Positions 55,960-56,053 of a DNA stretch of 64,000 nucleotides are shown here, in pieces. The stretch lies in NCBI RefSeq assembly GCF_044324875.1, contig NZ_CP172185.1; one strand, given 5' to 3'. Every line of letters begins with the position of its first letter. Position 1 is the stretch's first letter. The notes under the pieces were generated by a model, which saw only the letters and a program-made list of their open reading frames with translations, searched no databases and was not told the DNA's origin. This stretch comes from Escherichia coli (GTDB lineage Bacteria > Pseudomonadota > Gammaproteobacteria > Enterobacterales > Enterobacteriaceae). The translations under genes were made by a program, and so were the position numbers.

Positions 55960-56053
55960 GCCGTGTCCACATTACGTGGGTAGGATCACTCCACCGTCAC
56001 ACCCGATGGGATTGTTGGGTTTCTCATCGTTAGCTACCGATTCTATATTCCAG
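55960..56053 (-). repeat. Fragment related to the group II intron 5' region (inverse orientation, diverged)
   Basis: Reverse complement aligns with intron positions about 53282..53355 with a few mismatches. Confidence 0.5.

Follow-up and report, generated by a model that had tools for sequence, protein, structure and literature searches.

The window, by which we mean the whole stretch of 64,000 nt analysed here, is an IS-rich Escherichia coli genomic island. It is collinear with a region of strain SCU-115 in which sitABC, sodC, ibrAB, iha and a PhoX gene lie beside ynjA-xthA-ast. Five insertions in the window are lacking in SCU-115, namely two 768-bp IS1 copies (47985-48751 and 57268-58035), two 1.3-kb IS3-family elements that are IS1203/IS629-like (1849-3155 and 34140-35446) and a 2.6-kb segment (15724-18362). 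Rfam places an ALIL frameshift pseudoknot in both 1.3-kb elements (2705-2821 and 34995-35111), and two Hfq-binding sRNAs lie inside the island on the minus strand as full-length Rfam matches, isrN at 38001-38143 (138 bits) and STnc490 at 61191-61312 (134 bits).

An earlier note on this DNA had flagged positions 55960-56053 as resembling the 5' region of a group II intron and as following a truncated IS911-like orfB, denoted here as copy 2. The features around copy 2, in window order, are:

51050-51193, minus strand: mid-fragment of an unrelated IS3-family orfB (...TENVVKAFRQTLRLGKMTSPLIHHS) that bounds the old intron; PGAP 'IS3 family transposase, frameshifted, incomplete'
51194-51348, minus strand: old intron piece 3, E.c.I4 positions 483-545 and 666-759, with the 120 nt between them absent
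51349-52330, minus strand: IS481-like element, 982 bp, with a degenerate rve transposase and imperfect terminal inverted repeats of ~65 nt (TGTACGAT...)
52331-52475, minus strand: old intron piece 2, E.c.I4 positions 332 to ~470, with the right CACCTG copy at 52331-52336
52476-55988, plus strand: IS3-like element, left repeat TGATCTTACCC..., right repeat ...GGGTAGGATCA
53237-55506, plus strand: full-length group II intron E.c.I4, 2270 nt, inside orfB of the IS3-like element after ...GACATCACGTACT
55989-56078, minus strand: old intron piece 1 (the flagged feature), E.c.I4-like intron positions 29-118, the 5' part of domain I
56079-56698, minus strand: copy 2, the 5' part only of an IS911/ISEc31-related IS3-family element, with a degenerate orfA and the beginning of orfB up to ...CAGGTATGG; its 5' limit is approximate

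The IS3-like element contains HTH_Tnp_1, HTH_21, rve and rve_2 domains, with orfA at 52538-52837 and an orfB that is split by the resident intron and has its stop codon at 55958. The intron begins with GTGTG and ends with CTAC, in agreement with the GUGYG and AY boundaries of group II introns, and when it is removed in silico the exons read ACG TAC TTG CGT ACC (T Y L R T), as in an IS3-type orfB. Its domain V/VI is matched by Rfam RF00029 Intron_gpII at 55420-55506 with 64 bits against a gathering score of 40, and an intact ORF at 53908-55416 encodes a protein of 502 aa with RVT_1 (3.3e-34) and GIIM (1.2e-10) domains. Copies in 1873 complete E. coli genomes match the resident intron at 98.5% over 2271 nt, and the 1764-nt ykfC fragment of K-12 covers its positions 2-1765. 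Judged by its length, the K-12 fragment and this near-identity, the resident intron is E.c.I4 proper, of bacterial class A. Leclercq & Cordaux 2012 (PMC3522654) credit the description of E.c.I4 to Dai & Zimmerly 2002. It homes into the transposase genes of IS629, IS911, ISEc16 and ISEc31, and its fragments are common (PMC3522654); the full-length copies in Table S3 of that study are given as 99% identical.

The protein at 53908-55416 differs at 8 positions from one annotated intact LtrA, and the annotation gives its orthologues in SCU-115 and XDL an internal stop (W409* in SCU-115). By its sequence, the window copy of E.c.I4 may have retained activity. Five differences between window 53258-53280 and L005 2522-2544 are clustered in intron positions 22-44, where the window reads GCGAGCATAGACGCTCAAATGAACCA and the K-12, ISEc31 and ISCfr6 copies read GCGGGCATGGATGCTTAAATGAACCG, in introns that are ~98% alike overall. 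Recombination between lineages could account for this cluster, as could paired changes in a stem of domain I.

When the resident intron was compared with the whole window by blastn, its positions 32-118 matched window 56075-55989 on the minus strand (87 nt, 90.8%, E = 2.5e-29). The similarity that the earlier note had noticed is thus real and far beyond chance. A repeat finder, independent of blastn, gave a match of 94 nt at 88%, and the alignment with the K-12 copy of E.c.I4 runs ungapped from position 19 for 100 nt at 90%, where positions 19-28 coincide with the IS's own GGTATGG. The bounds of the flagged interval need adjustment. Its first 29 nt, 55960-55988, are the right end of the IS3-like element, whose inverted repeat ...GGGTAGGATCA ends at 55988, and the intron-like sequence starts at 55989 and extends to 56078; likewise, the counterpart in the resident intron, which had been placed in the matching region at 53282-53355, is 53265-53354. 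The RefSeq genomes have no annotated feature at the fragment.

Further matches to the resident intron, which the earlier note had missed, lie beyond the IS3-like element. In piece 2, intron positions 332-464 correspond to window 52475-52344 (82% over 133 nt, E = 1.7e-31), and in piece 3, positions 483-545 correspond to 51347-51285 (81%, E = 7.2e-11) and positions 666-759 to 51287-51194 (87%, E = 1.1e-27). Piece 3 contains the beginning of the intron protein gene, 31 codons that include an in-frame stop, SEMQRNLAT*AATGTSRRIERLLRLITQPEW versus SEMQRKLATWAATDPSLRIQRLLRLITQPEW, and was annotated by PGAP in SCU-115 as 'reverse transcriptase, internal stop, incomplete'. All four matches are collinear and on the minus strand, as expected of intron-derived sequence. 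By these alignments, ~300 nt of the old intron survive as pieces 2 and 3 beyond the IS3-like element, and piece 1 extends only to position 118, since it there meets the right inverted repeat of that element. The earlier note had taken the end of the flagged fragment as a later deletion; a deletion does fit the junction with orfB, as described below, but in copy 2 the fragment ends at an inserted element with more intron on the other side.

Altogether, the old intron survives as ~390 nt of an expected ~2270 nt, and its positions 1-28, 119-331, 546-665 and everything past 759 are absent. The flagged fragment contains no domain V/VI, EBS region, intact protein or splice boundaries, and Rfam at gathering thresholds gave no second Intron_gpII match in the window. 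Rfam is blind to this fragment, since it has no D1-D4 family for the intron class of E.c.I4. The fragment is a dead intron relic, and nothing suggesting a present function was found.

The host copies and the orfB junction

The counterpart of copy 2 lies on the opposite strand, some distance away in the window, and is denoted as copy 1:

20833-21573, plus strand: 5' part of an IS911-like element, of which 20833-20993 is IS911-type and 20994-21573 is in common with copy 2
21574-21608, plus strand: intron remnant of 35 nt, with intron positions 29-52 identical to copy 2, a gap of 12 nt, then positions 65-75 (AATCGGTAACT)
21609-21741, plus strand: 3' end of the same IS type, with the last orfB codons ...SCYILNYYNSVRPH... 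and the right end

The closest relative of the host IS is in E. coli SC407 (L003), 87% identical to copy 2 (86.7% to L003 2691-3312). The host is probably a member of the IS3 family, in view of this match, a match of ~75% to ISEc31, a match of 90% to IS911 over the first 176 nt of copy 1, and HTH_21, which in copy 2 lies in a 113-aa ORF; the rve part is deleted in both copies, and the ends were read by eye only. In SCU-115, PGAP annotated the copy 2 stretch as 'IS3 family transposase, frameshifted, internal stop, missing N- and C-terminus'. The 3' end of copy 1 is 91.9% identical to L003 5062-5196 and 86% to the ISEc31 3' exon in L006. An intron fragment had been reported in copy 1 at 21586-21640; the remnant is present, at 21574-21608, but the bases from 21609 onward belong to the IS 3' end. 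The 11 nt AATCGGTAACT at 21598-21608 match copy 2 at 10 of 11 positions, for which we estimate a chance of ~7e-4 within 100 nt.

Copies 1 and 2 are identical at 603 of 604 positions, where 20994-21597 is the reverse complement of 56658-56055, and they have the same frameshifts and stops. This common block crosses the orfB break into the first 24 nt of the intron-like sequence, so the two copies record one event that was duplicated later. The idea of a homing event in the earlier note was therefore essentially right, except that there was one event and not one for each copy. Upstream of AAGCTATGAATG, the two copies diverge abruptly (20833-20993 versus 56659-56698), with an IS911-type 5' end (90% to K-12 IS911) in copy 1 and an L003-type 5' end in copy 2, which implies that at least one copy is a recombinant of two IS3-family elements. 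Chimeric IS629/IS911 hosts are mentioned in Table S2 of PMC3522654.

Both copies break at the same point of orfB, as had been noted, but 19 nt of exon separate this point from the equivalent intron site downstream, and the intron-like sequence begins only after the first 28 nt of the intron. E.c.I4-type introns share a conserved homing site, ...GA(T/C)AT(T/C)ACGTA(T/C)N^ (the caret marks the junction), at the 'DITY' codons of orfB, and in an IS911/ISEc31-type orfB the intron is expected after GATATTACGTATA. In L003 the site is empty and reads GGTATGGTGCGAAGATATTACGTATA^TCTGGGCAGG, i.e. GGTATGGTGCGAAGATATTACGTATA^TCTGGG, and an L003-type site is GGTGCGAAGATATTACGTATA^TCTGGG. Using a reconstructed query of 391 nt, in which the exon of the window was joined through the 19 missing nt to the 5' end of E.c.I4, we found 268 E. 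coli records that cover at least 80% of it, and the best listed matches span all 391 nt unbroken. Two of the 268 records were inspected and contain ISEc31- and ISCfr6-type elements (PGAP names) with E.c.I4, where the occupied site reads GGTATGGTGCGGAGATATTACGTATA^GTGTGCCCGGAGTTCAGGGCGGGCATGGATGCTTAAAT and, with both ends, ...GGTATGGTGCGGAGATATTACGTATA^GTGTGCCCGGAGTTCAGGGCGGGCATGGATGCTTAAATGAACC...CTCTAC^TCTGGGCAGG. Relatives of the host IS thus carry E.c.I4 exactly at the equivalent orfB site.

We take these ISEc31::E.c.I4 and ISCfr6-type::E.c.I4 composites to represent the ancestral arrangement, in which the intron follows GATATTACGTAT(A/C) and both repeats bordering the later deletion are present. 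Their empty site equals that of the closest relative of the window IS. The composites differ from the window copies in that their IS is only ~75% identical to the window IS overall and their intron is E.c.I4 proper.

The window copies read ...CAGGTATGG^ATTCTTAAATAAACCTCGAGTCTG at the junction, in short form GGTATGG^ATTCTTAAAT. Deleting 47 nt (19 of exon and 28 of intron) between GGTATGG in the exon (-26..-20) and GGCATGG in the intron (+22..+28) reproduces this junction exactly. The microhomology is short, 4 nt exact and 6/7 overall, and the 4 nt ATGG were assigned to both partners in pairwise alignments. The canonical DxTY junction is absent from the window relic, and this absence fits the 47-nt deletion between the GG(T/C)ATGG repeats. 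Since the canonical junction is gone, homing at the exact site is reconstructed rather than observed; positions 119-331, which would carry EBS1/EBS2, and the last 19 exon nt are missing from all copies found. These sequences would be accounted for most simply by canonical homing and a later deletion, through slippage or microhomology, in which the 5' splice site was destroyed.

Retroelements that are copied from their 3' end often yield 5'-truncated insertions. The imperfect junction could have been made at integration, if reverse splicing or reverse transcription stayed incomplete and the resulting 5'-truncated intron was joined to a resected exon by microhomology-mediated repair. The loss of 28 intron nt and 19 exon nt at a microhomology of 4-7 nt would result from either route. 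However, the 5' junction is precise in every other E.c.I4-family insertion inspected, that is, in the IS3-like element of the window, the K-12 IS911, ISEc31, ISCfr6 and the EcPF14 IS629-like fragment, and slippage between short direct repeats suffices without a special pathway, so we consider a faulty integration unlikely.

We give still less credit to the possibility that the intron was never inside the IS and that illegitimate recombination or an IS-mediated rearrangement brought an unrelated fragment up against a truncated IS911-like element. The element-rich island is a graveyard of rearranged elements, the old intron of copy 2 abuts an unrelated IS3-family fragment, and copy 1 is already chimeric, with an IS911-type 5' end and another IS. 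On the other hand, the break is 19 nt from the site used by the relatives of the intron in the relatives of the IS, with the same orientation, and in copy 1 the 5' part of the IS precedes the remnant and its 3' part follows, as they should, so that both position and orientation would have to arise by accident. Considering that the remnant lies between these parts in the right order and orientation, the intron was very probably once inside the IS, as the earlier note had proposed in naming the orfB of a different IS3-family member as host. Homing followed by the 47-nt deletion is hence the reading that we adopt for the junction.

The unrelated fragment at 51050-51193 was also considered as the lost 3' exon of the IS911-like element, and was rejected; its protein (...LIHHS) is of another IS3 subgroup, and it has no nucleotide match to L003.

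Elements that interrupted copy 2

The IS3-like element occupies the old intron between positions 118 and 332, and 213 nt of the old intron are gone. It has no target duplication, as its flanks are TAC and CTC on the plus strand, or GAG and GTA along the old intron. Without such a duplication, it is from the collinear flanks only that we infer its entry into the old intron. In a megablast search of E. coli genomes with pieces 1 and 2, no copy 2 allele was found in which the two pieces are adjacent and the IS3-like element is missing; the search returned strains carrying piece 1 only, plus a third lineage.

In strain XDL (L008), the left end of the same IS3-like element is fused to window position 49444, corresponding to an adjacent deletion of ~3 kb. 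Lost in this deletion (window 49445-52473) are ibrA, the IS481-like element and what is left of the old intron on that side, and the left end of the IS3-like element directly joins ibrB. Deletions beside this end of the IS3-like element do occur, as XDL demonstrates, and an adjacent deletion of this kind is the likely cause of the 213-nt loss.

The 982-bp element contains rve and rve_3 domains, and its ends and duplication were read directly from the sequence. Based on the domains, the terminal repeats and the short duplication, we assign it provisionally to the IS481 family. It is flanked by a 6-bp duplication, CACCTG, at 51343-51348 and 52331-52336, which shows that pieces 2 and 3 were once one molecule.

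Lineage and spread of the old intron

The matches of the relic to E.c.I4 have identities of 81-91% (individually 90.8%, 82%, 81% and 87%), while copies of E.c.I4 are ~98% alike. This difference indicates that the relic derives from a separate, older intron, and the earlier note's proposal of a second, older relative holds in this respect. The relic also has specific indels of 120 nt and ~13 nt. Lacking the near-identity of E.c.I4 copies, the relic is, as far as sequence can tell, of a related lineage and not E.c.I4 itself.

When PLSDB and 5,426 complete E. coli genomes were searched with the pieces joined end to end, only E.c.I4-type introns at 78-83% were returned, and the old lineage was found in no intact or less decayed form; the PLSDB matches include plasmid introns of Yersinia, Salmonella, Enterobacter and Klebsiella at 78-83%. 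The 5,426 E. coli genomes contained no contiguous copy of the old lineage. A degenerate 30-mer search gave 7 loci, in Hafnia, Pectobacterium, Rahnella, Kluyvera and Buttiauxella, which are 81-92% identical to the relic per piece and are all nearer to E.c.I4 (90-99%), and an exact 26-mer common to the old lineage and the EcPF14 lineage had 0 matches in GTDB species representatives. In the parts of the 2012 fragment catalogue that were searched (supplements of PMC3522654), no entry matching the relic was found. The relic is either a separate lineage or a long-dead copy, and the IS that hosts it has decayed to an equal degree, with frameshifts and stops.

The two derivatives of the relic were found in 522 of the 5,426 complete E. 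coli genomes, on chromosomes and plasmids. Of approximately 450 partially matching records, most match only up to the junction, and the one that was read, plasmid p3R-1 of a chicken E. coli, has the copy 1 configuration, with no intron RT annotated in the surrounding 5 kb. Apparently, then, the copy 1 form is widespread. The copy 2 form was found in 55 genomes.

EcPF14 (L009, NZ_CP054230.1) carries at 3658-4182 a 524-nt 5' fragment of a third diverged E.c.I4-like lineage, 90% identical to E.c.I4. Its junction with a truncated IS629/IS1203-like orfB, ...GATTTTACTTACG^GTGTGCCCGG, is precise, and the fragment is cut off by IS66-family sequence.

As the fragments are less than 3 kb from the resident intron and match its 5' region, they might be thought to have arisen recently and locally from the resident E.c.I4, through duplication or gene conversion. 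We regard such an origin as highly improbable, because it is refuted by the identity of 81-91%, compared with ~98% among E. coli copies of E.c.I4. Moreover, the relic has lineage-specific indels, the fragment is no nearer to the resident copy than to E.c.I4 relatives of other genera, and copy 1-type relics are found in hundreds of replicons, of which the one that was read, p3R-1, has no such RT gene nearby. Two independent homings, each with its own deletion, would also place intron-like sequence at the same orfB point in two IS911-like copies, but are refuted by the 603/604 identity with the same frameshifts, stops and non-canonical junction and have practically no chance of being correct.

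Proposed history of the nest and known systems

We reconstruct the order of events and the deletion mechanisms from the observed homologies, coordinates, common junction, target duplication and occupied and empty equivalent sites. Very probably, the flagged bases are the fossil of an older E.c.I4-like intron that homed into an IS911/ISEc31-type orfB, after which the junction was deleted, the composite was duplicated and the copies decayed differently. In the first step, an E.c.I4-like class A intron would have retrohomed into the 'DITY' site in orfB of an IS911/ISEc31-related IS3-family element. The 47-nt deletion between GGTATGG and GGCATGG would then have removed the splice junction and killed both the intron and the transposase, and the dead composite would have been duplicated. 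Copy 1 seems to have lost 12 nt, as well as the segment from intron position 76 through ~130 nt before the right end of the IS, which would leave the IS 5' part, 35 nt of intron and the IS 3' end. In copy 2, the IS481-like element would have entered by simple insertion with its 6-bp duplication, and the IS3-like element would have arrived with the younger, apparently intact E.c.I4, after which its left end would have deleted 213 nt. The outcome would be a nest of IS911-like element, old intron, IS3-like element and young E.c.I4. The proposed order is thus entry of the old intron, junction deletion, duplication, and insertion of the IS481-like and IS3-like elements; the homing of the younger intron sits outside this order.

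The relic resembles E.c.I4 in its 5' domain I, in the sequence preceding the protein gene, in the protein N-terminus, in its orientation and, as reconstructed, in its DxTY target in orfB, and is unlike E.c.I4 in being 81-91% identical, carrying the 120-nt and ~13-nt indels, and being dead and fragmentary. A similar case is known from K-12, where E.c.I4-tr1 (ykfC), a 1764-nt fragment in IS911 orfB, is cut by IS5 in prophage CP4-6 (Table S2 of PMC3522654). Both are E.c.I4-family fragments in an IS911-type orfB, shortened by another IS. However, the K-12 fragment has a precise 5' junction, ...GTGACCTATA^GTGTGCCCGG, and is 98% identical to E.c.I4, whereas the window relic has lost 47 nt at the junction, is far more diverged and is split by two further IS. 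The nest can also be compared with the c-Ha.de.I1 introns of Hamiltonella defensa, which nest in their own copies (PMC3522654). In both, mobile elements lie within mobile elements at several levels, but in the window the levels alternate between IS and intron, and the inner IS would have arrived by transposition and not by intron homing.

Taken together, the relic is a genomic fossil of an ordinary kind that has been documented before. The island in which it lies is common in E. coli, and copy 1-type relics are also present on plasmids. It has little significance beyond annotation, in that unannotated bases beside truncated 'IS3 family transposase' pseudogenes are group II intron remains. It adds one further case, with a cleanly reconstructed 47-nt deletion, of E.c.I4-type introns that colonised IS3-family transposase genes and then decayed, and the lack of an intact relative among the genomes searched fits the selection-driven extinction picture of Leclercq & Cordaux 2012 (PMC3522654). 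More speculatively, and with somewhat more doubt than confidence on our part, the relic might be the sole surviving trace of an extinct sister lineage of E.c.I4 that was specialised on the IS911/ISEc31 group. If this were true, the fixed relative chronology of the nest would be usable as a dated marker to test the extinction-recolonisation model of bacterial group II introns.
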